Part shown: positions 1 to 64,000 of the stretch, one piece after another | How positions within the stretch are numbered: the first letter of the stretch is position 1 | How the letters are laid out: every line of letters starts with the position of its first letter | Assembly: GCA_044356215.1 (NCBI GenBank) | Contig: JBIKWQ010000003.1 | Span: 953 to 64,952, forward strand | Reading direction: 5' to 3' | From: Bdellovibrionota bacterium | GTDB lineage: Bacteria; Bdellovibrionota_C; UBA2361; OMII01 | Length of the DNA stretch: 64,000 nucleotides | Notes under the pieces: generated by a model | What the model saw: the letters and a program-made list of their open reading frames with translations, nothing else | The model's database searches: none | What the model was told of the DNA's origin: nothing | Made by a program: the position numbers and the translations under genes

Positions 1-2345
1 TCCGCGAATACCGGAGGGGATACTCCGATACGAGCCGCCGCGTACTTAAGGTGCACGCGTAGACGTGGGAATAAGAGATCATATCCACGCTCAAAAGCGA
101 GAACTAATCCGAGCGGGCCACGACACAACGCGCGGATCTCGTCGATCTGGTCCGCGCTCACCCGAGACGCCGTAAGCAGACTCTCACGAGCTATAAAGAC
201 CTCTGGCATCAGCACCAGCGACATCCGCTCAATAAGTTCGTCCTCGAGCATAGGAGCCTCATGGGCCTTTAATATGAACTCATCCAAGGCGATAAAGTGG
301 ACGCGCTCAAATGATTCCCTAATAAACCGCACAAAAGTGGGGGGAAGATCGCTGAGCTCCTCGATATTAGATAGATCTTCGTGAATAGCGTTTACTAGTG
401 GCTGCAGTTCCACTCCCGCCAGCAGCAAATCAGCCATTTGAAACGCCTCCGATGAGAGACAGTTCCTAAGAGCATCACGCAGCGTCATGCGTGGATCCGT
501 CAATTCGAAGAAAGCTCTCTCGACCCTATTCCTCTGGTCATAAGTTAAACCACTTAAGAAATCTAAAACTGGGCGATCAAGTTCACCTACATCTGCATCC
601 TGGTCGATTAACTGCGCTAAGCTTACAGCGTCCTCCTCGTCATCCGCGCGACTCTTGTACTCCCACTGCCACACCGTTGGCTCGGGTTCGACTCCGCGAA
701 ATCGCGCTAAGACATCAATAGTTAATGACCAGCGGCCGTTTCCGCCCATATACCTATCGATTAATACGACGCGTCCCTGCTCGCTTAAAGAAGGAGACAC
801 CCGCTCTAATCTTCTCTTTATGACATCTTCCAAATTATCACCAAAGACTATCTGGTAAGCTTGCTGAACCGCCAAACACTCTCTCGGCTCTCGAAAATGG
901 AGTGGGGCTATGATCTCAAATAGATCTCCAGACACCGCGATCCGCTCCGCTATCACAAGCGCCACGCGGCGAGGATCAAATACGCGCCTCGAGATAAAAA
1001 GCCGGGGATCAAGCTCGTACCCGTAAACCTCTTGTAGGGCTCTGTTTGTGGAGTTAAAACGCTCGCTCGATAAGGCATCTACCCTCTCGGCTATTAATTC
1101 AAATGAATTAAGCACTCTGTGATGAATCGACATCCGATCACGCCACATCCGGCGCTTCTTGAAATGCCTTAAGAATGGTCCGATTCCTTGAGTGTGGTCA
1201 CGATCCACGGAATCTCGCGGATCGCTTAATGTGTCCTCGATCTCGTCTAGGTGCGTCTTTGGGAAGAGTATATGATGAATAGTCTCCGCCTCGAGATGTG
1301 GTGACCAGCCCTTTAAAACATCCGCGAGTCGCTCCTGATCAGCCTGAGAGAATATCCTCCTGACATGGGCCTCTAGCCCCTCGTCGCTATCTAAGGCATC
1401 TGGCCCAGCTAATTCAAGATACATCCGCTTAACAAGCGACATCTCCTCTACGCTCCGGCCCAAGAAGAGATATCGTAGCGCCCTCGCGTCATCACGGGCT
1501 CTAAAGGCCTGCGCGCGCTTCTGCTCTACTACCTCATTCTTACCGATACTCTTGCGAGCTGGCGCTTTAGCCTCACTAGTCTGCGCGTTTAAAAGGGCGT
1601 GCGCCTGCTTTGCTAGGCTTTTGAAGGGGATCTTTAAGAATTCATCACGAACAGCGACTAGCTGACTCTCTGTGCAATCAAGTAGGATATCAGCGATTCG
1701 TTGCTCCTTGTCAGCGTGAGGCCCGTTGTAAAGCACCCAAAGACTCTCAGCTACTTTTTCAACATCCATCCCGTGGGCTATCCGAGCGATCCGCTCCTCT
1801 CCTTCATGGCCAACTCGCTTTATGATCTGGTAAGAGATCTCAGGTCGCTCTCCTCGATCTCTAATCGGAGTGTAATAGTGCTCTGTAAAGAAATCGTTCG
1901 CTCGGTCTAGAATCTCCTTGGACTCTCGCGGAGATCTATCGGACAAAACCACATTAAATGCGCTTAAATAAAGATCTATATCAGTTTCGCGGCTCTTCTG
2001 AGCGAGTTGATAGATCTGATGAGCTAAAGCTTCCGCCAACTCTTGATGCTTCGCCTCATACTCTTGGCGCTCTTGGCGCGATCTTCTGCGCGGTGGATCC
2101 TGAGGAACAGGTGGAGCCTTCGCGATCTCTCGGATTCTATCTAGACCACCCTTAACTGAGAGTGGTCGATAGAACTGATCAAAGACCTCTCCTTCATACT
2201 GTAATCTGGCCGCGGAGGCCGCCTCTCGCTCGCGCTCTAAAGCCTCCTCGGCCTCTCTTCTCGCGAGATCTTCCACAGGGCCACTCTTAGGGGCGAGGAT
2301 CCCTTTCTTAAAAACGATCTTCTTGTCGCCTGATCCGTCTACCAT
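1..2345 (-). CDS. large hypothetical protein, N-terminal part (at least 780 aa in window; C-terminus lies beyond the window start); partner of the upstream tandem AAA+ ATPase
   Basis: The reverse-strand frame is open without stops from ATG at 2345-2343 through position 1. A GAGG Shine-Dalgarno lies about 9 nt upstream, and the start is 44 bp after the ATPase stop. My own translation begins MVDGSGDKKIVFKKGILAPKSGPVEDLARREAEEALERE. The ORF is missing from the supplied track because its stop codon is outside the window. The small plus-strand ORFs at 491-2155 sit inside it. I recognised no family. Confidence 0.6.
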   Translation of the reverse strand, partial: MVDGSGDKKIVFKKGILAPKSGPVEDLARREAEEALEREREAASAARLQYEGEVFDQFYRPLSVKGGLDRIREIAKAPPVPQDPPRRRSRQERQEYEAKHQELAEALAHQIYQLAQKSRETDIDLYLSAFNVVLSDRSPRESKEILDRANDFFTEHYYTPIRDRGERPEISYQIIKRVGHEGEERIARIAHGMDVEKVAESLWVLYNGPHADKEQRIADILLDCTESQLVAVRDEFLKIPFKSLAKQAHALLNAQTSEAKAPARKSIGKNEVVEQKRAQAFRARDDARALRYLFLGRSVEEMSLVKRMYLELAGPDALDSDEGLEAHVRRIFSQADQERLADVLKGWSPHLEAETIHHILFPKTHLDEIEDTLSDPRDSVDRDHTQGIGPFLRHFKKRRMWRDRMSIHHRVLNSFELIAERVDALSSERFNSTNRALQEVYGYELDPRLFISRRVFDPRRVALVIAERIAVSGDLFEIIAPLHFREPRECLAVQQAYQIVFGDNLEDVIKRRLERVSPSLSEQGRVVLIDRYMGGNGRWSLTIDVLARFRGVEPEPTVWQWEYKSRADDEEDAVSLAQLIDQDADVGELDRPVLDFLSGLTYDQRNRVERAFFELTDPRMTLRDALRNCLSSEAFQMADLLLAGVELQPLVNAIHEDLSNIEELSDLPPTFVRFIRESFERVHFIALDEFILKAHEAPMLEDELIERMSLVLMPEVFIARESLLTASRVSADQIDEIRALCRGPLGLVLAFERGYDLLFPRLRVHLKYAAARIGVSPPVFA

Positions 2346-2389
2346 TAATTGAAACCTCGTCGCCGCCAGCCAAACGCTCTTCAGTTAAA

Positions 2390-4582
2390 CTAGGCGTACT
2401 CCATTTCCATCCAAGCGCGCTCTCGTCGATCTCTATCGGGATCCTCAACGATATCCTGTAATATTAAACGCCCGAGTCTCGCGTATATTACATCAATCGT
2501 GGCGTTTTTTCCGTCTAGATGGAGTGGATCAAGGAAATCCGGATGGAATCTAAGCATATGATCCATTACCGCTCGATCGTGCTCTGATTTGGCGATCATA
2601 GCCCAAACGTTCTTTCCTACCCAGGCAAAATCCGCTGAATTCCAATCTAGCATCCGTTGAACGTAGTGTCCGATAGAGAGCAATTCCTCTGGAGCTGGTG
2701 GGCGCTCGAATTGATACGTTCCCTGGCTATTACGCATCCTATCAGCTATCCAAACCAAGTTATTAACCAACTGAGGAAGACAGTGTTTAGAGAGTACGCG
2801 CCTCTCAAGGGTTGAATCTAGGTAGCTCATCCGCATCGGATGAACACGTCGTAAGAATGCATCATCTAGTCTGCGATTGAAGTTTTTGGTGAAAATCACC
2901 AGAAGATTATCTACGTTACAGTCTATCGGAGGACGAGATTCCAACCAGATTCGGGCATCTTGGATCGGTCCTAGAAAGAACGTATCGATATGACCATCTA
3001 CTTTATCGATCTCATCTATTAGTAAGATCACCGGCTGATTCTGAGATTTCAAAAAGGCTCGCGACAGGATTCCAAGATTCATCAACTTCTCTTTGGCTTG
3101 CGTCTCCTGGCCCGCCATCGATGACGCGATCGCCAAAGCTGAGGGAACCTCGATCAGATGCGCAGTGTTCATCCCATTGTAACAGCTAAGACACATCAAC
3201 TCCGCGCCCGTCGCTTTAGCCAGGCATTTCGCCAAAAAGCTCTTACCGCAACCAGAGGGTCCCTCAAGGAGGATCGCTCGTACCCTGTCAGATGGAGATG
3301 TTAAAAGTAACGACATCTGAGTAGCTGTAAAGCGCGCGCATTGATATCCAACCGCGGCCAATCGCCGAGACATCTCCTCTGGATCAGAGAACTGAGTGAG
3401 CCCTATCTTTTCGGGCTTATAGGCTCTCCCGCGACGCTTCGCGTCTGGATCATCAATCACACCCTCTAACAGCCACCGACCTAAGCGGGCATAGATCTGC
3501 TCAATCGTCGCGTTTCTGTTGTCTGGCACCAATGGATCGGTGAAATCAGGATGATAACGCAGAAGCTGCTCAAAGACTGTGCGGTCATGCTCAGACTTTG
3601 CCAACATATAGAAGAGATTCTTCCCTACGAAGGCGTAATCGATCAGATCCCAGCTTAAAAGATGTGTTAAATAATGTGCCGCTTTTAACAACTCCTCAGG
3701 AGCCGGCGGCCGCTCGAAAGGATAGCTACCATCTGAGCCGCGCATTAAATCAGCTACGCGAATGAGATTCTCCGCTAATTTTGGCTTACAGTGCGGCGCT
3801 AAAACTCTGCGCTCTAAAGCGGAATCCATGAACTTCATGCGCAACGGATGCACGCGTCGCAGTAGCGCCTCGTTAATTGGGCGCTCGAAGTTCTTGGTGA
3901 ACATGATTAAAAGATTGTCTAAGTTAGCGTCGATCGCCTCACCAGACTCACGCCAAACTCTACCATCTTGAATCGGCCCCAAGAAAAACGTATCGATCGC
4001 CACATCAACTTTATCTAACTCGTCGATCAGCAATATAACCGGCTTCTGTCGCGACATCGCGAAGGCCTTAGAGATCGGCCCAAGATTCATCAAGTCATCG
4101 ACTTTCTGGTCAGAAGCGCGGCCTGTCATCGCGTTTACCATTCCCAGTGTCGACGGCATCTCGATTAAGTGTTGCAGGTTCATCCCCTTGAAACACTGGA
4201 TACACATCAACTCGGCGCCAGTAATCTTGGCTAACGATTTAGCCATGAAGCTCTTACCGCAACCGGATGGTCCCTCTAACAAGATACACTTAACACTGTT
4301 AACTCTGGTGTTGAGCAACAGCGACATCTGAACAGCGTAAAACGGTAAACAGTGATAGCCGACCTCTCCTAACTTAATCTCAAGCTCCTCAGGGGTTCCA
4401 ACGTCCTTAAATCCGACCTTTTCTGGAGCGTAATTAGAGTGGAAATTGGGGTTAACGATCCCAAGCTCGCTACCATCAGTCTTGGGCTCAAGATCATTAG
4501 CCGCGCCGCGATTACGGAACGTAATCTTGCGTTGTGGGGCTCCTGCGGTGCTTTCAGAGTTGTTGTCGTCTTCTAACGCCAT
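2390..4582 (-). CDS. tandem-duplicated AAA+ ATPase (MoxR/CbbQ/NorQ-like AAA_5 type; two complete ATPase units)
   Basis: 730 aa. Two roughly 365-aa halves are clearly homologous to each other. Each half has a Walker A motif (LLEGPSGCGKSF[ML]AK), a Walker B motif (ILLIDE[LI]DKVD) and a sensor region (NLL[IV][MI]FTKNF). The start is ATG at 4582-4580. Confidence 0.8.
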   Translation of the reverse strand: MALEDDNNSESTAGAPQRKITFRNRGAANDLEPKTDGSELGIVNPNFHSNYAPEKVGFKDVGTPEELEIKLGEVGYHCLPFYAVQMSLLLNTRVNSVKCILLEGPSGCGKSFMAKSLAKITGAELMCIQCFKGMNLQHLIEMPSTLGMVNAMTGRASDQKVDDLMNLGPISKAFAMSRQKPVILLIDELDKVDVAIDTFFLGPIQDGRVWRESGEAIDANLDNLLIMFTKNFERPINEALLRRVHPLRMKFMDSALERRVLAPHCKPKLAENLIRVADLMRGSDGSYPFERPPAPEELLKAAHYLTHLLSWDLIDYAFVGKNLFYMLAKSEHDRTVFEQLLRYHPDFTDPLVPDNRNATIEQIYARLGRWLLEGVIDDPDAKRRGRAYKPEKIGLTQFSDPEEMSRRLAAVGYQCARFTATQMSLLLTSPSDRVRAILLEGPSGCGKSFLAKCLAKATGAELMCLSCYNGMNTAHLIEVPSALAIASSMAGQETQAKEKLMNLGILSRAFLKSQNQPVILLIDEIDKVDGHIDTFFLGPIQDARIWLESRPPIDCNVDNLLVIFTKNFNRRLDDAFLRRVHPMRMSYLDSTLERRVLSKHCLPQLVNNLVWIADRMRNSQGTYQFERPPAPEELLSIGHYVQRMLDWNSADFAWVGKNVWAMIAKSEHDRAVMDHMLRFHPDFLDPLHLDGKNATIDVIYARLGRLILQDIVEDPDRDRRERAWMEMEYA

Positions 4583-5108: not shown

Positions 5109-5202
5109 GCTCGGCTCCGAGCGTCAAAAGCTCGGTATCTCGATGTTTTGTTAGTAACGGCGCGTTCGCGCTGTTACCGATAGGGTGTCGCAGTTCTTTA
5201 TC

Positions 5203-5288
5203 ACCACAGAGGACGCAGAGGACACAGAGAACGGCCATTTTATCGGCAATTATAAGGTTTTCTCTGTGTCCTCTGCGTCCTCTGTGGT
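5203..5288. repeat. perfect 29-bp inverted repeat (ACCACAGAGGACGCAGAGGACACAGAGAA / reverse complement) around a 27-nt loop; large hairpin or cruciform-capable element
   Basis: Arms at 5203-5231 and 5260-5288 are exact reverse complements. No confident CDS overlaps them. A 29-mer inverted repeat is far beyond chance expectation in 64 kb. Confidence 0.6.
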
Positions 5289-5389
5289 AAAAAATATTTT
5301 ACTAATTGTCTCAGCAACTTACCAAAAACACTGCGACGCCCTGTGTTACCGAGCAAATAATCGCTTAGGCGAGGTCTTGCCTCGGCGCT

Positions 5390-13809: not shown

Positions 13810-14561
13810 CTTCGCACCTCTATGCCCTCTTTAGCTAAAAACTCCTTTACCTCACAAACCGACGTAATACCGTCATGAAACAACCCAGCTACTAAGGCCG
13901 CGTCGATATCAGAGCATCTGAAGAGATCTAGAAAATCCTTTAAATCTCCCGCTCCACCAGAAGCGATTACCGGCACATTCACCATCGTCGCAATATCTCT
14001 TAAAAGCCGCAGATCATAACCAGAACGGGTTCCATCGCGGTCCATAGAAGTTAACAGGATCTCTCCGGCTCCACGTTTTGTGACCTCATTCGCCCAGCTT
14101 CTTGTTGATAGTCCTGTGGCGACTTTACCACCTCTGGCGAATACGCAATCATCACCATCAACTAGTTTTGAATCGATAGCCACAACTACACACTGACTAC
14201 CGAACTCCCTGGCTAATGTGTCTATTAAATCAGGATTACTTATCGCACTTGAATTAACAGATACCTTATCAGCACCAGCGCTTAAGAGACGTGACACGTC
14301 ACTAGCTGACGAAATCCCTCCTCCAACTGTAAAGGGGATCGCAATCGCTTTAGCTACAGATCTGACCACATCAATTGTGGTTGAGCTTTCCTCTTCGCTT
14401 GCCGAGATATCAAGGAATACCAACTCATCAGCCCCCTCCTCTGAATAGCGGTGAGCAAGCTGAACCGGATCTCCCACATCCCTAAGATCAACAAAACGGG
14501 TCCCCTTAACCGTTCGTCCACCCTTGATATCGAGGCACGGGATTATTCGCTTAGCTACCAT
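13806..14561 (-). CDS. hisF: imidazole glycerol phosphate synthase cyclase subunit
   Basis: A (beta/alpha)8 protein with RIIPCLDIKGGRTVKG at the N-terminus and VIASGGAG further on. It overlaps hisIE and hisA. Confidence 0.95.
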   Translation of the reverse strand: MVAKRIIPCLDIKGGRTVKGTRFVDLRDVGDPVQLAHRYSEEGADELVFLDISASEEESSTTIDVVRSVAKAIAIPFTVGGGISSASDVSRLLSAGADKVSVNSSAISNPDLIDTLAREFGSQCVVVAIDSKLVDGDDCVFARGGKVATGLSTRSWANEVTKRGAGEILLTSMDRDGTRSGYDLRLLRDIATMVNVPVIASGGAGDLKDFLDLFRCSDIDAALVAGLFHDGITSVCEVKEFLAKEGIEVRR

Positions 14562-19684: not shown

Positions 19685-19701
19685 GGTCCAAGGGAACCCT
19701 G

Positions 19702-20544
19702 CTAGGCTCTACGGCCTTCCAAATGAAAAACCCGTCGATAGCGCTCCTGCAGCTTTTTAGCCTTACTCTCCGAGTGCTCAACCCTCACGCTACACGACCA
19801 ACGACGACTGAGAAGAAGCTTGCGCAGCGACGCCCCTCCTTCGATCACTGTTCGGCTATCGTTTAATATACTCCTTAGTCTTAGCGCGAGCTCACGCGGA
19901 ATCTCCACTCTTAAAACGTATGGGCCGATCGTCGTGATATAAATATTCTCCTCTCCCTTAAATCCTCGCTCGGCAAATGTATAGTGAATTAAGTCCGACA
20001 CACGCGTCTTTACCCATGACTTCTCTATTGCTGAGGAACCGCCAAGAATTACATAGAGATTTCTTGATGACGCGTGAGTCGCCGCTTTAAACTGTTTTTC
20101 GACCTCCTCTTGAATAAGGGTAAACCATGCGGCAGGGCACCACTCATAGGTTACGCCATCAGAAACCTGTCTTCTAAGTGCTAGGGTCAATTGGACATAC
20201 ATCGCGTCCATACGGCAGAGATCATGAAACTTCCAGCGCCTCTTCTCTCCAACGGGTGGAAGCTCAAGAACCTCGGCTAGGTTTCGCACGTAATTTTTCT
20301 GAATATTGTAGGCTAGATCAGCCAGATCCTCGATCCATAAAAAACTAAGAGAGAAATTCTCGCCAACTTTTACAACACTCCCCAAAGCTTGGAGTTTACG
20401 AAGCTCATGGTAAACCCCTTGAATGGAGCACTCTCTTCCCTTGGCGAGTATGCGCGCGTGAAGGGTCTTAGCGCTTTGACGGGGCCGGTCCGCGAGAAAT
20501 CGAATTAGTAGCTCATCTAGATTATTTGTTCCGTGAGGGATCAT
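19702..20544 (-). CDS. hypothetical protein with N-terminal winged-helix-like segment; possible transcriptional regulator
   Basis: 280-aa ORF. The N-terminal segment KTLHARILAKGRECSIQGVYHELRKLQALGSVVKV looks like an HTH/wHTH. The rest is unrecognised. Confidence 0.5.
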   Translation of the reverse strand: MIPHGTNNLDELLIRFLADRPRQSAKTLHARILAKGRECSIQGVYHELRKLQALGSVVKVGENFSLSFLWIEDLADLAYNIQKNYVRNLAEVLELPPVGEKRRWKFHDLCRMDAMYVQLTLALRRQVSDGVTYEWCPAAWFTLIQEEVEKQFKAATHASSRNLYVILGGSSAIEKSWVKTRVSDLIHYTFAERGFKGEENIYITTIGPYVLRVEIPRELALRLRSILNDSRTVIEGGASLRKLLLSRRWSCSVRVEHSESKAKKLQERYRRVFHLEGRRA

Positions 20545-20581: not shown

Positions 20582-20657
20582 TACCTCACCCAAATCGAAA
20601 CAAGTGTGGTTCAGTGAGACATAATATTCTAGGTTTGTTGCTAGAGGAGAACATTCC

Positions 20658-39459: not shown

Positions 39460-39603
39460 AATCCACAGAAGCTCAAAAAATACACGCTCTCTGCTTCATT
39501 CTCGCGCTCTTTTTAATACTAATCAAAATTTCTGTGTCGGGTTTAGGGCGTCCTAGACCTTATGAGGGTGGGATAGTTTGTTTTGGATCTAAACACTACG
39601 CAG

Positions 39604-39975
39604 GTGATTTTTGAAAAAATCACTCGCAATAGCAGGGCGAGCGCAATCTTGGCGCCTGCAGATCAGTAGTAGCCCATTTGCGTCGTAAAAGACAAAAAAC
39701 ACTCGAGCCGCAGCGCAGGACTATCTAGTCGTTGAAAGGCGTAAGACTATTGGTGTGTGGGTCGATTTTTAAACGGACAGGAACGCAAATTACTGGCAAA
39801 AGAGCTACGGCTTGAGCGCTATGCGTGCTTCTTGAGATAGAATTAAGTGCATATTTCTGCTCGACGCCTTCACACGCTCGGCACGTAGGAGTTTGTTGTC
39901 TTCTACGGCTCAACTTGGCTCCGCCAAGATTGCGCTCGCCCAGCTATCCTAATTCATTTTTTTCAAAAATGAATT
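39604..39975. repeat. approximately 370-bp element bounded by roughly 50-bp inverted repeats (MITE-like); each arm is an A/T palindrome plus GGGCGAGCGCAATCTTGGCG
   Basis: An exact 20-mer inverted repeat lies at 39636-39655 and 39921-39940. The adjacent ATTTTTGAAAAAAT-containing palindromes are GTGATTTTTGAAAAAATCAC at 39604-39623 and CCTAATTCATTTTTTTCAAAAATGAATTAGG at 39945-39975. The arms are about 75% identical over about 50 bp. Confidence 0.45.
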
Positions 39976-39984
39976 AGGCTGGGT

Positions 39985-43630: not shown

Positions 43631-44303
43631 CTACTATCGCCCCATCTCGCATGCGAATAACTCTATTACATCTTGCTACCGCGCTCTCACTGTGAGTCGC
43701 CATTATTATCGGCGTCCCCTGGCGGTTCACATCTTGAAGTAAAGTGAGCACCGAGGCGCCAGAAACGGAATCAAGATTGCCCGTAGGTTCATCCGCAATT
43801 AGCAAAGCTGGAGGTCGCGCTACCGCTCTCGCAATCGCGACTCTCTGGGTCTCTCCGCCGGAGAGAGTCGCTGGCACAACCTTTAGCCGGTGAGACAGCC
43901 CCAAGGTACTCAAGATCTCATGAGATCTTCTAAGCGATTCTCTTTCTCCCCATCCATTCAAGATACAAGGCAGCATTACATTCTCCTCAACCGTCAAAGT
44001 TGATAGGAGATTAAAGCTCTGAAAAACATAACCTATCCGCGCACGTCGATACTCTCTTAGCTTCTTGTCGGTGAGATCTCTTAGCGACACCCCCTCAAAC
44101 ACGATCTCTCCAGAGCTGGGGATATCTATTAAACCTAGCAAGCTAAGCAGGGTGCTCTTACCACATCCAGAGGGTCCAATTAGCGCGATAAAATCCGGTC
44201 GGTTCACCACTAAAGAAACTGAGCGGACCGCGTTTACCTCGCGCTCCCCATCCTTGAAAACTCGGACCAACTCACGTGCCTCTAAAAGTGCGGCTTCAGC
44301 CAT
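43620..44303 (-). CDS. ABC transporter ATP-binding protein (MacB/LolD-type)
   Basis: It has Walker A (GPSGCGKST), the ABC signature (LSGGETQRVAIARA) and Walker B (LLIADEPTGNLD). It is 227 aa. Confidence 0.9.
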   Translation of the reverse strand: MAEAALLEARELVRVFKDGEREVNAVRSVSLVVNRPDFIALIGPSGCGKSTLLSLLGLIDIPSSGEIVFEGVSLRDLTDKKLREYRRARIGYVFQSFNLLSTLTVEENVMLPCILNGWGERESLRRSHEILSTLGLSHRLKVVPATLSGGETQRVAIARAVARPPALLIADEPTGNLDSVSGASVLTLLQDVNRQGTPIIMATHSESAVARCNRVIRMRDGAIVDAT

Positions 44304-45519
44304 CGCTATTAACCTTTTTTCCTGAGTGTCCAGGCAATCTAATGTGTCGTGCCACTGTGCGCATCACTGTCTGTTCTTTGGACATAGCGAAGATCCAACC
44401 ACCACAGATCTTAAATGAACTACCCTCGATTCCAAAGCGCTCTAGAGACGCTGATATACGCCTCTTCTCAATCGGCTGAGAGAGTTGATAAAGCGACGCG
44501 AATTTCTCAAAGCACTCAGCCGCGCTAAACCACCCCTTAAAGCGCTCCCGTGGCTCGCGCGCTCTTCGTATCAACTCAGCGAACTCAGAGAAGGCTCTGG
44601 CGTGAACCGCAACACGTCTCCCTTTAACCTCATAAAAGCCCATCAGATCTCTATGTTTGGGGGTTAATTTAAATGATCCCAACTTATCACGCGGCGCTCT
44701 CTCTAACTCACCTCTTAAGAACGAGCTTAAGTGTCGTCCGTGCAACTCAATCACTCGATTTAAAACACCACGCTCCTCTATAAAGACAAATTTACCCGAC
44801 GCCCTTAGACCTTTATTTTTAGAATTAAGTAGATCATAAGGAACCACCATCGGAAAGCTCCTTGGTACCCTACGAGCGCGCTTCGCCAAATTTACCAGCG
44901 CTTTAAATGATACAAGTAAACTACTCTCGCAACCTGGATATCTACGTTGAAGGAACCGCGAGCCAATGGCGATCTGCCTAAATGATTTAATAACAGATTC
45001 AGGAATCAGCAGAGGTCCATCGCGCCTAGCTATCTTAGCCTCTAAGCCGAGTCGGCCTTGGGATAAACTCACTCCGGCCAGCCCAGAAAGCTCTGGATCC
45101 GCTGGATGAAGGTAATCAGCGGCGGGAAGAAGTGAACCCAAGTAGTATGGTAGGCCAAACTTTTGAGGGGCTGGAATCGTGACTGTGATTAGAGATCCAG
45201 TTAATACACTCTTACCTTCTACAAGATACTGCCTCTCTGGGGTGGCGCCATCAAATAGCCACTGCTTAGTTTTCTCGATACTCTTATCGGCGATCCCTTG
45301 GCTCTCTTGAAGCATCCACTTCTGAAAGGTCTCGACCACGCACTCGAAAGCCGATTCTGAAACGAATAGTCCCTTAGGAACAACACGAATATCGTTCCTG
45401 CGAGCCTCAAACCCCTTGTTACCTTTGAGCGACTCAATGAATTTAACTAGCGACGCCTCGCGCGCCTGCTGCGCCTGTCCCTCTGCCATAAGAACCCCTT
45501 CCTTAGGGAAGGCCGGCAA
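44296..45519 (-). CDS. hypothetical basic protein, first gene of the ABC/CrtC-like cluster
   Basis: 407-aa ORF with no TM segment and a high Arg/Lys content. I recognised no family. It overlaps the downstream ATPase gene by 8 nt. The real start is probably the second Met (MAEGQAQQ, at 45489), because the first codons overlap the palindromic element. Confidence 0.5.
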   Translation of the reverse strand: MPAFPKEGVLMAEGQAQQAREASLVKFIESLKGNKGFEARRNDIRVVPKGLFVSESAFECVVETFQKWMLQESQGIADKSIEKTKQWLFDGATPERQYLVEGKSVLTGSLITVTIPAPQKFGLPYYLGSLLPAADYLHPADPELSGLAGVSLSQGRLGLEAKIARRDGPLLIPESVIKSFRQIAIGSRFLQRRYPGCESSLLVSFKALVNLAKRARRVPRSFPMVVPYDLLNSKNKGLRASGKFVFIEERGVLNRVIELHGRHLSSFLRGELERAPRDKLGSFKLTPKHRDLMGFYEVKGRRVAVHARAFSEFAELIRRAREPRERFKGWFSAAECFEKFASLYQLSQPIEKRRISASLERFGIEGSSFKICGGWIFAMSKEQTVMRTVARHIRLPGHSGKKVNSDG

Positions 45520-45699
45520 AACCTACCCGTAGCGAGAAAGTGGAGGTTGAGTTGATATTCGATTTTCGAGATGGGAAAAAACCGCAAGTGTATCCACTGT
45601 GATACATTGAGGATTTTTTCCCATCTCGAAAAGTCGAAGAGCAGCTCAAGATCCGCTTTCGCAGTAGGGAGGGGTTTTGCCGGCCTTCCTTAGGTTTCA
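45497..45699. repeat. nested palindromic element of about 200 bp (MITE-like): outer imperfect inverted repeat, a 19-bp perfect inner inverted repeat and a central 6-bp inverted repeat
   Basis: The outer arms GGAAGGCCGGCAAAACC (45507-45523) and GGTTTTGCCGGCCTTCC (45673-45689) are exact over 17 bp. The inner arms TTTTCGAGATGGGAAAAAA (45563-45581) and TTTTTTCCCATCTCGAAAA (45614-45632) are perfect. The centre is TGTATC-cactgt-GATACA. The motif CTTCCTTAGG occurs at both outer flanks. Confidence 0.45.
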
Positions 45700-45747
45700 A
45701 ACCCTCTATAAGTACCCTTTTTCGCGGCTTTCAGCTACAGTCACCTC

Positions 45748-46893
45748 GTGCAACAGCGCCTTAACTGCCAAATTGATGGTCGAGATTCCTGGTCCAAGGC
45801 CAGAGCTCTGACGATCTCTACTATCCATGGAACCGTAGAGACACCGATATTTATGCCGGTGGCTACCCAAGGCGCGCTGCGCCACATAGATCTCTCCTTC
45901 GCTGACGATCTCGGATACCAGGTATTGCTGGCAAACACATATCACCTAATGATCCGACCTGGCGTTGAACATTTTCAGAGTAACGGCGATCTGCATTCCT
46001 TTATGCGTTGGCCACGTTCTGTGCTAACCGATTCTGGAGGGTTCCAGCTCTTCTCACTTAGTAAGCAGATCCGCATAACCGAGGAAGGCGCCTCATTCAG
46101 AAGCTACACAGATGGCCGCAAGATGCTCCTATCGCCCGAAAGCAGCATCGCGACTCAACGAGCGATCGGCAGCGATATCATGATGGTATTAGATCACTGC
46201 ATCCCGTCGACCTCACCCATAACGGATCTGCGAAAGGCACTTCAGCTAACTACTCGGTGGGCCAAGAGATCTCTTGAGGCACGCGGAGAGTCCAGGCAGG
46301 CGCTCTTTGGAATAGTACAAGGTGGTTGCAACCAAGAGCTAAGGAGCGAGAGTGCCTCGGAGATAACTCAATTAGCTTTCGATGGGTTCGCGCTTGGCGG
46401 GTTAGCAGTCGGCGAGACTCGAGCCGAGAGGGAAGATACGATAGAGTTTGCGGCTCCCCTCTTACCAGATGACAGACCCCGCTATGTAATGGGAATAGGC
46501 ACCCCGATCGATCTCCTTGAGGCGGTGCGTCGCGGGGCGGATATGTTCGATTGCATCCTGCCGACTGCTTTGGCAACTCAAGGTGTAGCTTTTACGAGCC
46601 TAGGAAAAGTGGATCTAAGGAGAGGAGTTTACAAAAACGTAAATTCGCCACTTGATAAAGATTGCCCATGCCGAACATGTCAGAGATTCACGAGAGCCTA
46701 CCTGCATCATTTAGTTAAAGCGAAGGAATCGATCGTTCAACAGCACATCAGTGTCCATAACCTAACTTTCTACAGGTCTCTGATGCATAGAATGCGCCAG
46801 GCTATTCTTGGGAATAGCTTTAGCGAAATGTACGGCAAAGAGGCTGATAAGATAGCAGCGATGGATCTTGAGTTTCCAACGGTAACTGAATGA
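45748..46893 (+). CDS. tgt: queuine tRNA-ribosyltransferase
   Basis: It has the catalytic region VLTDSGGFQ and the zinc site (CPCRTCQRFTRAYLHHL). It is 381 aa. Confidence 0.9.
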   Translation: MQQRLNCQIDGRDSWSKARALTISTIHGTVETPIFMPVATQGALRHIDLSFADDLGYQVLLANTYHLMIRPGVEHFQSNGDLHSFMRWPRSVLTDSGGFQLFSLSKQIRITEEGASFRSYTDGRKMLLSPESSIATQRAIGSDIMMVLDHCIPSTSPITDLRKALQLTTRWAKRSLEARGESRQALFGIVQGGCNQELRSESASEITQLAFDGFALGGLAVGETRAEREDTIEFAAPLLPDDRPRYVMGIGTPIDLLEAVRRGADMFDCILPTALATQGVAFTSLGKVDLRRGVYKNVNSPLDKDCPCRTCQRFTRAYLHHLVKAKESIVQQHISVHNLTFYRSLMHRMRQAILGNSFSEMYGKEADKIAAMDLEFPTVTE

Positions 46894-47236
46894 CCGCAGC
46901 TCTCATATCACTCATGGCGGCCGCGACGATCTTTGGGACGAGCGGTTTGTTTGTAAAGTCACTTGGACTTTCCGCGCTTGTGATAGCGTCTTTTAGGTTA
47001 CTGACTCCTGCTCTCATCTTATTCGCCACGAGCCCAAAGCTGGGGCTATCAATAATTAAGTCTCCTAGCAGACCTCTTCTATTAGCATCTAACCTTACCG
47101 CGCTACGGGTATTTTTCTGGGTTGTCGCGTTGAAATACGCATCTATCAGTAAATCGGGATGTGCTGTATGTAATTATGCTAGGGGAGGAGCTGACTTATA
47201 GAACCGTTGTTGGTGGCACTTTGATTTTATTATCGG
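46890..47236 (+). pseudogene. EamA/DMT-family transporter fragment (N-terminal 3-4 helices, then a +1 frameshift into a C-terminal helix); pseudogene or half-size DMT with a frameshift
   Basis: The ORF 46890-47201 reads like an EamA N-terminus (...ALKYASISKS). The +1 frame is open from about 47135 to 47236 and reads ...LTYRTVVGGTLILLSAWYARYTRG*, which looks like an EamA C-terminal helix. Together they give about 115 aa, versus about 290 aa for a full 10-TM EamA protein. Confidence 0.4.
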
Positions 47237-47356
47237 CTTGGTATGCGAGGTACACCCGAGGATGAGGGGGGTAATCTAGCCATGTCGTCGTATACGGTGC
47301 CGCATAACGACGACATGCACGTTTCACTCAATAATTACTGGGGAGGTTTATGATTT

Positions 47357-47917
47357 CTATCTGGGCTTTCTCGAAAGTTGCCCCTTGTACTTTACTTGAT
47401 AGCATACGTAAAAATTACCAAGTCGTCTTCCACTCCCTCTCTCTCTACAACCAACATAGATGCTGTGTTCTGCCTTTGCAATTTCATCATTAAATTTGGC
47501 AATCTTCGTATCAAGGTTGAACACTCCACACGCAGCTGCCTGTCTGCCTCTTGGAGTTGGATCCCTGTCTGATGGCGCCGAAACTAGGTTAAAGGCAGGA
47601 GGGAGATCTTTATACCTAGACATTAGAAATCCCGTTCCTGGTCTTCCATTTACAGTACCGTTAGCAAGTATATCACTTGATCCACCGAGGCGAGGTCCTT
47701 CTACCTCTAGAGGGAGACTTTTGCCGAAATTTAATTTTCTAGCTTGGTTACAGAATCTACCATCGATTACCACCTGCCTTTTTACAAAATCGACACTCCC
47801 AGAAAAGCTCGCATTGCCATATTTTTGAGAATCTATCGTATCGATAGTATCCGGCCGTGATTGTGCAAAACAGTTTGAAGATAACAACATACAAACACTT
47901 ACAATTATCTTTTTCAC
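47357..47917 (-). CDS. secreted hypothetical protein (signal peptide)
   Basis: 186 aa with an N-terminal signal MKKIIVSVCMLLSSNCFAQ. There is no recognised domain. It sits in an AT-rich stretch (47202-48132). Confidence 0.5.
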   Translation of the reverse strand: MKKIIVSVCMLLSSNCFAQSRPDTIDTIDSQKYGNASFSGSVDFVKRQVVIDGRFCNQARKLNFGKSLPLEVEGPRLGGSSDILANGTVNGRPGTGFLMSRYKDLPPAFNLVSAPSDRDPTPRGRQAAACGVFNLDTKIAKFNDEIAKAEHSIYVGCRERGSGRRLGNFYVCYQVKYKGQLSRKPR

Positions 47918-48132
47918 AATACCTCCATATTTATCCGCTCTTATATAATGTAACTTATTGGCAGTATTTTACAAGTCAGTACTGGCCTTGTCAATTAAAT
48001 AATGCTCACATTTTACATTATTAGCTAGTATGTTGATTTAATTGGAATCTAGTGCGCGGGCTGACGGCTCTGAAGTATTTTGAGGTCGCGGTGTCCGAAC
48101 CTAAATTGAACCACGGCTGGTACATCCACAGC

Positions 48133-60181: not shown

Positions 60182-63100
60182 CTAGACCTGATCCTTTGAA
60201 GCAGGAAGTCTGACAGTAAATGTACTGCCCTTACCCAACCCATCGCTTTCCCCGTGAACATGCCCACCGTGCATCTGCACAACCCTCCTTACCAAGGCAA
60301 GCCCAATACCGAGTCCTCCTTGAGTGCGATCTAACGGGGAATATACCTGACTGAACATCTCAAATATCTCAGATAACTTATCAGGCGGAATGCCTATTCC
60401 TGTATCCACAACTCGAATAACGATCTCATTTCCATCGAGGTCCGCGATTAAAGAGATCTTCCCACCTGGTGGTGTATACTTGGCAGCGTTAATCAGTAGA
60501 TTGCTGAGAACCTGCGACAATCTAGCAAGGTCACCCTTTAAATAGACCTCTTCCCTTGGCAGCCTTACAGCAAGCTGATGCATCGCCGCCTCGATAGCCG
60601 GCCTGCTACTTTCCAGCGCCGAGTCAACTACCGCTTTAAGAGTTATCTTCTCAATACGGAGCTCAAGTCGACCGAGGCTAATTCGCGATATATCAAGTAG
60701 ATCCTCGATAAGCCGGACCATATGGAGAAGCTGCCTGCTCATCATCTCTCGAGCTTGTATTGCCGTTGGTCCAGACGGATCGCGTTTTATGATCTCAAGT
60801 CCAGTTCTTATTGGAGCCAGGGGATTCCTTAGCTCGTGCGCCAGGGTAGCTATAAACTCATCCTTCTTCCTGGCCTCTGAGTTTAGCTTCTCGCGGATCA
60901 TTCTTTGCTCGTGGATATCAGCGTGAATACCCACAGCTCTGATAGCCTTACCCTGCGAATCTCGTTCGACTACTCGCCCTCGATCCAAGATCCATATCCA
61001 CGCGCCAGACTTAGAACGCAGTCGATGCTCTACCTCGTACACAGACGTTAGCCCCTCGAGGTGCTTCTTTAACTCCCTCTCTACCCTCGCTCTATCATCG
61101 GGATGCACGAGCTCCTCCCAAGCCCTAACGTGCGGCTCGATCTCATCTGGTCTGTAGCCGATCATACTGGCCCAAGTTCCCCCAAAATTCACTACCCCGG
61201 TGGGTATGTGCCAATCCCACAACCCGAGGTTTCCTGCCTCTAGCGCCAGATTGAGTCGCTCCTGAGATCTCTTTACCTCCTCCTCGATCTTTTTCCTCTC
61301 AGTGATATCAATCACAACACCGATCATGCGAGTAGCGTGACCATCCTTATCGTATGACAACTCTCCCTGGTCCGAGTTCCACCGCACTTCACCAGATAAA
61401 TGAATTATTCGATACTCGTACTTAAAAGATCGCTCCTTATCAGCTATTAATTTATTCAGGCGCGCGGCAACCATCTCAACATCATCGGGGTGAACCCGTT
61501 TCCTCCACCCCTCATAGCTCCCCTCAAAGGTACCCACGCTAAGACCAAAGATCTCCTCTAATTGAGGCGTCCAAATCACCGTCCCTGTCTGAGGATTCCA
61601 GTCGAATACTCCTATCCTTCCGGCTCGCTCAGCGTATTGTAACCGCTCTGTAGTGGTCGTCAGTTGTTCCAGAAACGCTTTGCGCTCAATCAGCGTGGCC
61701 GCTAGCCGGACTAAAACATCTAGGTGATCCCGCTCTGACTGAGTTGGCTTCTGTTTGATCGTAGTGTGATGTATCGCCAAGGCACCCCAGACCTCTCCAT
61801 TAGATAAAATGATAGGCCTAATCCAGCACGAGCGGTAACCAGCCTCCCTTACTCTCTCGATAAATCCCGACGCAGAAATATCTGATATATCCGATATCAG
61901 CACCTCCTCGCGTTTCTCGATAACATCAGAAACTACCTTAAGATCTGCTATCGAAAATGGCTTAGAGAAGAGTTTCTCTACCACCGGACTCGACATCCTC
62001 ATTAAGGGTGTTAACATTTTCGCTCCGCTGGCTTTCAGTATGCAACTCTCAGCCCCCGGAAAAATTCCCTCTACTGCCACTGTAAATGAATTGAGAACTT
62101 TTTCTAATGACTCTGCTGGACTATCTACATCCAGTATCGCGCGGTGCGCTCGGTGCTCTTCCATCGAGCGACGATCCTCGGTGATATCGTCAGTAACTAT
62201 ATTAACCCCAATAATTCGATCCTCTGGGGTGATTAATGGATAAAAATTAGTACTCCAAGTTCGTATTGAGCCCGGAGTGATGGGGCATTCTCCAGACATC
62301 TCTACATTCAATACAGCACCCCTAGTCGCGATCGCCTTTTGAAGATGGAGATCAAACACATCAGCGATCATTGGAACTAATTCGCGAATTGACTTCCCGA
62401 TAAAATCCTCAGGACGCTTGCCGAAGTAATCAGCCATCACCTTATTAACGCGCACCCATCGGCGCTGCTCATCAACTACCGCCAAACCTACGGGCGCATA
62501 TGTGTATACTGACTCAAGCTCCTGTAGCTGATTTCGCGAGGCTATAGTCGCTTGCTGCAGGGCGGCTTCCGCTTCCTTGCGGCGCGTTATATCAACAGTA
62601 ACTCCCGGGAATCTCGCTGGCTTGCCTGATGTGTCGGCCAAAACTTTTCCCGTAGCAGAGACCCATCTAACCTGACCATTTTTACCTACTACTCGATACT
62701 CCTCCGAGTAGACCTCCCCAGACTGCAAGGCCATCTGAATTCGCTGTTGTATACGCTCGCGATCCTCTGGGTAGATGTGGTCCAAAAACTTGGCTACAGA
62801 AGCTCCTCGAAGATAGTCCGTTGGCATCCCATAGAAATCAATTAGGACGGGATCGCCGTAAACAACATCTCGCTGGATATTCCACTCCCACGTCGCCAGG
62901 GAACCGGTGGCTAAGGCGGCGGATAAGCGCTCGCGAGCCTCAACAAGCTTGCTCTCATTCTCTTTTAGCTGGGTAATCTCCTCAGCCTGAATCGCGAACA
63001 TGTCGGTATTTTTAGCGCCATCATGAATCGGAAAAACACACGCTGAAAACCACTGCCTTTGACCCGGCTTCTCCGTCTGAAACTCAAAACGCACCGGAGC

Positions 63101-63595
63101 GTTTCTGGCTTGGCTTTCAAGACACTGCTCATACCAGATCGACTCAACAGGTTGTTGCGCATGTGGTGTTGTACTAGACCCGCTACGGCCCTCAAGCCCC
63201 CGAGATAGAAATCTGCTCGCTGCCTGGTTGTCATAAATGTGGTCGAGCTGATCACCGTTAAGCTTAACTATGGCTACTAGAGACGTTGTTGCTGCCAGAA
63301 ACTCCTCTAGGTCAATCGCTAAGTCGGCCCCTCTCTTTCCTCTTTTTTCTTTAATACTAATAAGCGCCCCATTCCGGTGGCGCTTTGAATATAGCCCGTA
63401 CCTGGCCCCTGCCAAAACTCCTGTAAATAACGCGATAGTTGCCAGAAATAGTGGAAGAAAGCTCACCAATTCGGAGTTAACGATCAGCCAGGCAAAGATC
63501 CCGGAGAAGATCGAAACAAGTAGCAGCGCCGCGGCGGTGCCAGAGAACTTAAACGGCCTGCGATGCTCTAGTTCATAGTTTTCGCTAATCTGCAT
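60182..63595 (-). CDS. membrane-anchored multi-PAS sensor histidine kinase
   Basis: 1137 aa. It has two N-terminal TM helices, then several PAS/PAC-like repeats and a GAF-like region. The HisKA domain carries the H-box ATLAHELRNPLAPI, and the HATPase_c domain carries the G2 box GGLGIGLALV. Confidence 0.9.
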   Translation of the reverse strand: MQISENYELEHRRPFKFSGTAAALLLVSIFSGIFAWLIVNSELVSFLPLFLATIALFTGVLAGARYGLYSKRHRNGALISIKEKRGKRGADLAIDLEEFLAATTSLVAIVKLNGDQLDHIYDNQAASRFLSRGLEGRSGSSTTPHAQQPVESIWYEQCLESQARNAPVRFEFQTEKPGQRQWFSACVFPIHDGAKNTDMFAIQAEEITQLKENESKLVEARERLSAALATGSLATWEWNIQRDVVYGDPVLIDFYGMPTDYLRGASVAKFLDHIYPEDRERIQQRIQMALQSGEVYSEEYRVVGKNGQVRWVSATGKVLADTSGKPARFPGVTVDITRRKEAEAALQQATIASRNQLQELESVYTYAPVGLAVVDEQRRWVRVNKVMADYFGKRPEDFIGKSIRELVPMIADVFDLHLQKAIATRGAVLNVEMSGECPITPGSIRTWSTNFYPLITPEDRIIGVNIVTDDITEDRRSMEEHRAHRAILDVDSPAESLEKVLNSFTVAVEGIFPGAESCILKASGAKMLTPLMRMSSPVVEKLFSKPFSIADLKVVSDVIEKREEVLISDISDISASGFIERVREAGYRSCWIRPIILSNGEVWGALAIHHTTIKQKPTQSERDHLDVLVRLAATLIERKAFLEQLTTTTERLQYAERAGRIGVFDWNPQTGTVIWTPQLEEIFGLSVGTFEGSYEGWRKRVHPDDVEMVAARLNKLIADKERSFKYEYRIIHLSGEVRWNSDQGELSYDKDGHATRMIGVVIDITERKKIEEEVKRSQERLNLALEAGNLGLWDWHIPTGVVNFGGTWASMIGYRPDEIEPHVRAWEELVHPDDRARVERELKKHLEGLTSVYEVEHRLRSKSGAWIWILDRGRVVERDSQGKAIRAVGIHADIHEQRMIREKLNSEARKKDEFIATLAHELRNPLAPIRTGLEIIKRDPSGPTAIQAREMMSRQLLHMVRLIEDLLDISRISLGRLELRIEKITLKAVVDSALESSRPAIEAAMHQLAVRLPREEVYLKGDLARLSQVLSNLLINAAKYTPPGGKISLIADLDGNEIVIRVVDTGIGIPPDKLSEIFEMFSQVYSPLDRTQGGLGIGLALVRRVVQMHGGHVHGESDGLGKGSTFTVRLPASKDQV

Positions 63596-63732
63596 ATAGT
63601 TTTCGCCCCTACGTGTGACTATATCACGTGGTGATAACTTGCGCGCTGAGGGGGACTCTAGGCTAGAGAGTTAGCGTGAATAAATACTCGGGAATATGAT
63701 GTATGATCGGGATCATGTAATAAAGGGCCTCC

Positions 63733-64000
63733 CTAAGCCCCCCAATACCTCTGCCTCCTAAACCACACAGAGATCTTGGTGCTCTTGCCAAGATCACTGG
63801 CAACGCTTACATCACCTCCAAAAAGGCGAGCCAACCGCCGGACGGCGTCGACTCCTATACCACGTCCAGATAGACTCGTTACCTTACTACACGATGAGAA
63901 TCCTGGCTCACAGATAAGCATCAAAGCTTCCTCCCGTGTGAGTCCCTCAGGCACTGACAGGCCCCTTGAGCGCGCGATTGCTACTAATTTTTCAGGATCA
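63733..64000 (-). CDS. C-terminal HATPase domain of a CheA-family histidine kinase (5' part beyond the window end)
   Basis: The frame is open to the window edge (...DPEKLVAIARSRGLSVPEGLTREEALMLICEPGFSSCSKVTSLSGRGIGVDAVRRLARLFGG...). It matches the CheA HATPase G1/G2 region. The protein stops about 40 aa after the G2 box, with no CheW-like P5 domain. Confidence 0.55.
   Translation of the reverse strand, partial: DPEKLVAIARSRGLSVPEGLTREEALMLICEPGFSSCSKVTSLSGRGIGVDAVRRLARLFGGDVSVASDLGKSTKISVWFRRQRYWGA

Follow-up and report, generated by a model that had tools for sequence, protein, structure and literature searches.

What is the palindrome of about 200 bp that lies between tgt and a divergently oriented gene in the genome of an uncultured Bdellovibrionota bacterium? 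The stretch of DNA that contains it, called the window throughout, comprises 64,000 nucleotides of contig JBIKWQ010000003.1 (assembly GCA_044356215.1, positions 953 to 64,952 of the forward strand), and coordinates given without a locus name refer to this stretch. An earlier inspection of the letters (the sequence-only reading) had described a three-level nested palindrome and had likened it to the miniature mobile elements Correia, ERIC and RUP. The general idea of a miniature mobile element is supported by the number of copies that we found and by an empty site. With a probability of roughly 0.9, we conclude that the palindrome is a 183-bp copy of a multicopy, non-coding and non-autonomous transposable element, in other words a MITE (miniature inverted-repeat transposable element), which is most likely mobilized in trans by an IS5-type transposase. 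The element is short and non-coding (183 bp; family range 57–299 bp), carries terminal inverted repeats (TIRs), is flanked by a target-site duplication (TSD) as judged by comparison of filled and empty sites, and resides at many unrelated loci.

The repeats on which the earlier description was built, namely the outer, inner and central inverted repeats and an 11-bp repeat at the flanks, had all been placed correctly. The outer inverted repeat consists of the 17-mer GGAAGGCCGGCAAAACC, with exact matches at 45507–45523 (+) and 45673–45689 (−), and the inner inverted repeat of the 19-mer TTTTCGAGATGGGAAAAAA, with exact matches at 45563–45581 and 45614–45632 and 32 nt between the arms. Each of the two sequences occurs twice in the 64-kb window, where 0.09 and 0.01 matches, respectively, are expected by chance. 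The central repeat TGTATC-N6-GATACA (45589–45606) forms the full apical stem-loop TGTATC-CACTGT-GATACA. A repeat finder reported 76% complementarity between the arms 45504–45566 and 45630–45692, 84% complementarity between 45563–45594 and 45601–45632, and the 11-bp direct repeat CCTTCCTTAGG at 45497–45507 and 45684–45694. The three levels are the well-paired parts of a single continuous imperfect hairpin (45502–45694). Folding the region as RNA gave one long hairpin, with a predicted energy of −122 kcal/mol for the + strand (z = −14.1) and −106 kcal/mol for the − strand (z = −10.7), and none of 200 shuffled sequences folded as well in either case. The sole open reading frame (ORF) inside the element is a mechanical 65-aa frame (45503–45700, −).

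Two pairs of filled and empty sites show that this element moves. The first pair concerns the palindrome itself. A look-up of the exact protein sequence encoded by the 397-aa orphan ORF on its left (ORF397) led to an 8.5-kb contig of the Logan assembly of SRR11638223 (L001), in which tgt and ORF397 are spaced by 71 nt as compared to 258 nt in the window. Alignment to the window shows that L001 is shorter by exactly 187 bp and retains a single CCTTCCTTAGG and a single TTAG, with the junction reading CCCCTTCCTTAGGTTTC; what this relative lacks is exactly the element and one copy of the repeat. Outside of this gap, the two sequences are 100% identical over all 8,553 bp. In the second pair, the window provides the empty site, a single CTAG at 20641–20644 directly upstream of AGGAG-N8-ATG. 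A contig 98.8% identical to the window (L085) holds a 252-bp copy of the element at this site (L085 1036–1287), flanked by CTAG on both sides: where the window reads GTTG-CTAG-AGGAG...ATG, L085 reads GTTG-CTAG-(252-bp element)-CTAG-AGGAG...ATG. This second pair is unambiguous with respect to the TSD.

The consensus of 42 copies and the 187-bp gap in L001 place the bounds of the window copy at 45507–45689 (+, the orientation with the A-end TACCCGTAGCGAG on the left and the B-end on the right). The left TIR (45507–45523, +), which is exact and kept in all copies, is mirrored by its exact complement on the right (45673–45689, −). The TSD is TTAG, with its left copy at 45503–45506, as indicated by the single TTAG at the empty site in L001 and by the YTAR flanks of the family, and its right copy at 45690–45693, as indicated by the same comparison and by the family copies. 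The sequence-only reading had proposed CTTCCTTAGG at the outer flanks as a TSD-like repeat; a real TSD is indeed present, but it comprises only the 4-bp TTAG, and the remainder is CCTTCC plus one G. The left 11-bp copy (45497–45507) is made of host CCTTCC, which is the complement of the Shine–Dalgarno sequence (SD) of ORF397, followed by the TSD and the first G of the element, and the right copy (45684–45694) is made of the element terminus CCTTCC followed by the TSD and a host G. The 11-bp flank repeat is, then, a 4-bp TSD extended by a chance match between the ribosome-binding site of ORF397 and the terminus of the element.

This pair of 11-bp repeats is a likely substrate for precise deletion, which bears on the direction of the polymorphism. 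The element is present at the same site in a JGI contig with one mismatch to the window (L002, which ends in the middle of the hairpin), and also, with the same TTAG, in a 98.5% identical strain (L149; divergence from the window about 1.5–2%). Because this diverged strain carries the element at the same site while L001 equals the window elsewhere, the empty allele of L001 is best read as the recent precise loss of an old insertion. Such a loss could have proceeded by slippage between the chance 11-bp direct repeats across the 183-bp hairpin. Slippage-mediated precise excision at direct repeats that flank a hairpin is established from Tn5 and Tn10. Independent insertion at a hot spot, or allele replacement by recombination, are alternatives to loss.

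How large is the family to which this copy belongs? A metagenome collection scanned with a 22-nt degenerate pattern of the ends returned 73 loci from a handful of freshwater samples, and pairing of the ends among these metagenome loci identified 42 complete copies at 41 distinct sites, each with its own pair of flanks. Altogether we recorded 86 matching intervals in 74 loci, including many partial copies. No complete copy lies within a gene, and the intergenic regions concerned are bordered by divergent, convergent or tandem genes; many further copies are located at contig ends, as expected of a repeat that breaks assemblies. The most frequent size is 183 bp (25 copies); the other classes measure 251/252, 275/276, 299, 259, 222, 65 and 57 bp and have the same ends throughout. 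The longer forms consist of the 183-bp core with a 69-bp hairpin module inserted after ...AACCGCA, and some longer copies contain a further hairpin module of at most 47 bp in the apical loop. The segment with the inner 19-bp arms and the apical stem-loop (45563–45632, +) is the site where the longer variants hold these modules. We also considered the 69-bp and 47-bp modules as independent nested repeats and rejected this possibility, as they occur essentially only inside family members. The 183-bp copies share a mean pairwise identity of 96.8%, and the window copy differs from their consensus by one mismatch, both of which indicate that the family is young. Signs of activity include back-to-back copies (L083, L088 and L092), shortened copies, and seven 22-nt solo ends next to YTAR.

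Outside of these metagenomes, matches were scarce. Scanning reference genomes (596 Gb) with the bare 17-mer, for which we estimate about 70 chance matches, gave a list of matches that are almost all due to chance; the sole real match among those listed is a 57-bp mini-version with the same ends in a Bdellovibrionota metagenome-assembled genome (MAG) from Lake Mendota (L076). A scan of a viral contig collection returned two matches, both by chance, and a blastn search of a plasmid collection in distant mode returned only noise (E = 7). In the sample that gave most of the copies, one contig (L118) is 84.5% identical at 2–3800 to window positions 60198–63978, and the same contig carries a 184-bp copy of the element at 14022–14205. 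This degree of identity, combined with a copy of its own, indicates that the family is common to at least two related species.

These observations decide the question as to whether the palindrome could be a fixed, immobile regulatory structure of the tgt/ORF397 region, such as an operator, an attenuator, a small RNA or a 6S-like RNA. The divergent intergenic position and the very stable fold would suit such a function. This explanation is refuted by the precise absence of the structure from an otherwise identical strain (L001) and by more than 40 copies at unrelated loci in every gene context. Furthermore, no Rfam family accounts for the fold: a search of the region and of the whole window against Rfam 15 produced 0 matches at the gathering score, the region scored only with generic long-hairpin models of plant and animal microRNAs (45 bits versus a threshold of 230), which we consider spurious, and the 299-bp family variant gave no match either. 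A scan for tRNA and tmRNA found none. A fixed host structure has practically no probability left.

The ends and flanks of the family define how the element inserts. Every copy starts with GGAAGGCCGG and finishes with CCGGCCTTCC, and the copies are flanked by tetranucleotides of the form YTAR, with T in 67 and A in 73 of 78 half-sites. In 21 of the 42 copies, the tetramers on both sides are identical, including seven TTAG/TTAG pairs and the non-canonical pairs CAAG/CAAG and CTAT/CTAT. Identical flanks that include non-canonical pairs argue for a duplication of 4 bp rather than 2 bp. Many of the mismatched flanks pair CTAG with CTGG, CCAG or CTAA, and non-identical flanks may be due to decay of CTAG or to copies that recombined with each other. 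The copies further favor sites in which YTAR is continued by G-(G/T)-(A/T)-A-(A/G), with G at position +5 in 42 of 78 half-sites (p = 1e-8). This extended motif resembles both the GGAAGG end of the element and SD sequences. Of the 41 distinct sites, 17 have an ORF start no more than 45 nt outward of the element, and in several of these cases the insertion is directly at an SD; we noted that some copies abut an SD or the end of another copy.

At the seven loci with solo ends, exactly 22 nt of one end (mostly GGAAGGCCGGCAAAACCCCTCC) precede a YTAR, and the opposite side often has a matching one (L097 4199, L111 519, L146 3991 / L116 1443, L122 8271, L151 5518, L144 5635 and L118 14773). The break occurs at CCTCC|CTAC in the arm, a mimic of the true end-plus-target sequence CCTTCC|CTAG. 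The solo ends could be footprints or micro-elements that arise when this pseudo-end is used during excision or transposition.

Which transposase may act on these ends? The ends of IS5A from E. coli K-12, GGAAGGTGCGAATAAG and GGAAGGTGCGAACAAG (GGAAGGTGCGAA), begin with the same six bases, GGAAGG, as the element. On the evidence of 220 reconstructed events, IS5 duplicates 4 bp at 5'-YTAR-3' (PMC5009759), while IS711, which also belongs to the IS5 family and targets YTAR, duplicates only TA (PMC2266754). Taken together, a target of YTAR, a duplication of 4 bp and termini with GGAAGG make IS5-type mobilization the best explanation for the spread of the family, and because no partner element was found, this link is one that we infer. 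An IS5-type DDE transposase would bind the GGAAGG... ends and cut the element out, and the excised element would be pasted into a YTAR tetranucleotide, which would thereby become duplicated (here TTAG).

Several observations weigh against an IS5-mobilized MITE. The identity to the ends of E. coli IS5 covers the first 6 nt only. Within the window and all 150+ loci, which are fragments of host genomes, a tblastn search with E. coli InsH found no match, and a transposase gene with matching ends was not found in either. The ORFs beside the solo ends are ordinary genes and do not encode a transposase. Half of the copies are flanked by non-identical tetramers, which requires later mutation or recombination between copies. 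The empty allele in L001 is known from a single short-read assembly (Logan). Finally, no promoter-like site was found, so an effect of the element on expression is unsupported.

The missing partner insertion sequence (IS) and the shortness of the match to the IS5 ends also leave room for a transposase of another kind, either from the IS701 family or from an undescribed one. Members of IS701 create a conserved duplication of exactly 4 bp (PMC2266710), as does the element described here. On the other hand, the ends GGAAGGCCGGCA do not fit the IS701 signature ---YACT-Y--YR (PMC2266710, Table 1), and for IS5 there is documentation of the YTAR target as well as of GGAAGG termini. Mobilization by a non-IS5 transposase is unlikely in our estimation, if still a real contender.

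A different question is whether the MITE, apart from being moved as DNA, also acts as a single strand. One strand of the hairpin might be under selection as an RNA, be it as an RNase III substrate or an mRNA stability element within transcripts that run across it, or as a small RNA borne by the element. To judge from Correia elements, an inner stem of this length would suffice for RNase III. In each of the 42 copies, the predicted fold of the element's + strand is more stable than that of its − strand, with a mean difference of 13 kcal/mol. Among the 24 distinct 183-bp copies, transitions in Watson–Crick pairs resulted in G.U on the + strand in 13 cases and in A.C in 2 cases (p = 0.004); with partial and long copies included, these counts are 15 and 9. 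None of the nine A.C changes occurs in more than one copy; of the 15 G.U changes, 10 are common to several copies (Fisher p = 0.0015). These asymmetries are a hint that folding is selected on one specific strand. However, the events are few, the copies share ancestry, and in some cases more than one metagenome contributed the same locus. Covariation analysis was limited by the similarity of the copies, which contain only 1 compensatory pair. Also at odds with a role as RNA, the orientation of the copies is unbiased with respect to genes (in tandem contexts, 6 are sense and 5 antisense), beside start codons the mRNA contains the + strand in 6 copies and the − strand in 9–11, there is no promoter-like site in or beside the element, and the Rfam search gave no match. 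A role of this kind in addition to transposition strikes us as quite improbable.

A stronger version of this idea does not regard the hairpin as a mere side effect of the inverted ends and holds that persistence or spread of the family depends on the folding of one specific strand, as a mobile structured RNA or as a strand-specific single-stranded DNA intermediate on an IS5-type element, with the target YTAR-G-K-W-A-R steering copies to positions 5' of ribosome-binding sites. We regard this as a long shot. If it were true, copies at such positions could modulate many operons.

The asymmetry in pairing between the strands, together with the strongly palindromic and intergenic nature of the repeat, is also reminiscent of REP/BIME-like or IS200/IS605-type elements, which a tyrosine transposase (Y1/RAYT) moves by way of single-stranded DNA. 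The element described here has 17-bp TIRs and a 4-bp duplication, the latter supported by two filled/empty pairs, and REP/BIME-like or IS200/IS605-type elements are not known to have terminal inverted repeats with target duplications. The chance that a tyrosine transposase mobilizes this family appears vanishingly small.

Having assigned the palindrome to a MITE family that is probably moved by an IS5-type transposase, we turned to its consequences at this site. The tgt gene (queuine tRNA-ribosyltransferase; 45748–46893, +; Pfam TGT, E = 1e-134) starts with GTG at 45748, at a distance of 58 nt from the element's right end. On the other side, ORF397 (44296–45489, −) is supported by gene calls on two independent public assemblies, with its ATG at 45489–45487 and an SD (GGAAGGGG) that is the complement of 45495–45502. 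The element lies 17 nt upstream of this ATG and directly abuts the SD. The palindrome had been reported to overlap the first codons of a 407-aa ORF; this length comes from a mechanical listing that begins with a TTG at 45519, and the overlap holds for that TTG only and vanishes with the likely start at 45489. ORF397 has no match in Pfam, NCBIfam or PDB. ORF397 and the start of an ABC ATPase gene (ABC_tran) overlap; the latter is followed by a gene for an FtsX/MacB_PCD permease, and we note ORF397 as the uncharacterized first gene of a MacB-type transporter run.

The insertion would separate the promoter region from the ribosome-binding site of ORF397, the gene at the head of this run of ABC-transporter genes. 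A promoter scan detected no sigma-70-like site in or around the element. Transcription of ORF397 would therefore presumably begin in the 54-nt spacer that remains, or farther away, and run through the element. Given such an upstream promoter, the 5' leader of ORF397 would include a self-contained hairpin with an energy of about −100 kcal/mol. The only terminator-like matches are a small hairpin, CCTTCC-CTAA-GGAAGG, located at the left junction, and a second match within the ORF. In a hypothetical leader of ORF397, the predicted probability that the SD is unpaired amounts to 0.58 for the filled allele and 0.60 for the empty allele; this fold prediction gives no sequestration of the SD by the element, which folds on itself. 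Since the SD is predicted to be as accessible as in the empty allele, the insertion between ORF397 and tgt is probably tolerated rather than functional. An effect on read-through or on mRNA decay, for example by RNase III cutting the 26-bp inner stem as in Correia elements, is a matter of speculation.

The element appears to represent a MITE family that has not been described before, from freshwater bacteria of an uncultured lineage, probably Bdellovibrionota, and in a full-text search of the literature we found MITEs described for no Bdellovibrio-like bacterium. It is a new family of a well-known kind, and it changes nothing in how such elements are understood to work. Its practical value is that of a strain-level marker, because contigs with 100% identity across the 8.5 kb compared can still differ in its presence, and the many copies at contig ends explain assembly breaks in these genomes. 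The window locus also offers a natural example of a long hairpin with chance 11-bp flanking repeats that was, on the reading given above, lost precisely. The only aspects that could lead further are the strand-biased pairing and the tendency to land beside ribosome-binding sites.

Other repeats and length differences came to light in the same comparisons. The 525-bp intergenic region at 39460–39984 contains 47-nt imperfect inverted repeats (39608–39654 and 39922–39968) and is 74–83% similar to DNA in L142 and in the contig of the Lake Mendota MAG (L076 4987–5437), which probably makes it another repeat or MITE family with no relation to the first. A third dispersed repeat is located at 5177–5342, with 94–96% identity to L131 3098–3206 and L126 11023–11125. 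At 46908–48123, the window has 1.2 kb including ORFs of 103 and 186 aa where L149 (3052–3239) has 188 bp. Conversely, L085 has 1.08 kb (2207–3290) where the window has 36 bp (19690–19725). We examined this extra segment as a candidate IS and dismissed it, as there is no transposase-like ORF inside.

How does this family compare to known systems? With IS5 it shares insertion at YTAR, duplication of 4 bp and termini that begin with GGAAGG. It differs from IS5 in that it has no transposase gene, measures 183 bp instead of 1,195 bp, is self-complementary throughout, and has ends that are unrelated to those of E. coli IS5 past the first 6 nt. The proposed likeness to Correia, ERIC and RUP holds insofar as all are miniature mobile elements in kind, but, judged by its target and ends, the element is a member of none of these families, as it combines YTAR with a 4-bp duplication where they use TA. 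RUP from Streptococcus pneumoniae, a 107-bp element linked to an IS630-type transposase with TA as the target, is similar in being short and non-autonomous, in having TIRs, and in being thought to move in trans by the action of a resident IS (IS630-Spn1); target and ends are different. Correia elements of Neisseria (CREE/NEMIS) are likewise MITEs; they have TIRs and insert near genes, in many cases within 5' leaders. Their TIRs are 26 bp long, their duplication is TA, and their ends contain promoter elements, whereas the element described here produces a 4-bp YTAR duplication and has no promoter-like site that we could find. Correia RNA hairpins are cut by RNase III, and effects on the expression of neighboring genes are documented for them; for the present family, these serve as an analogy only. 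ERIC (IRU) of enterobacteria and Vibrio is about 127 bp long and associated with TA targets; it has no known sequence similarity to the element, which uses YTAR with a 4-bp duplication and resides in a different host lineage. In architecture, the two are alike: both are intergenic, multicopy, imperfect palindromes of 100–200 bp that span the whole element, both occur in size variants with internal insertions, and both could form RNA hairpins if co-transcribed with their neighbors.

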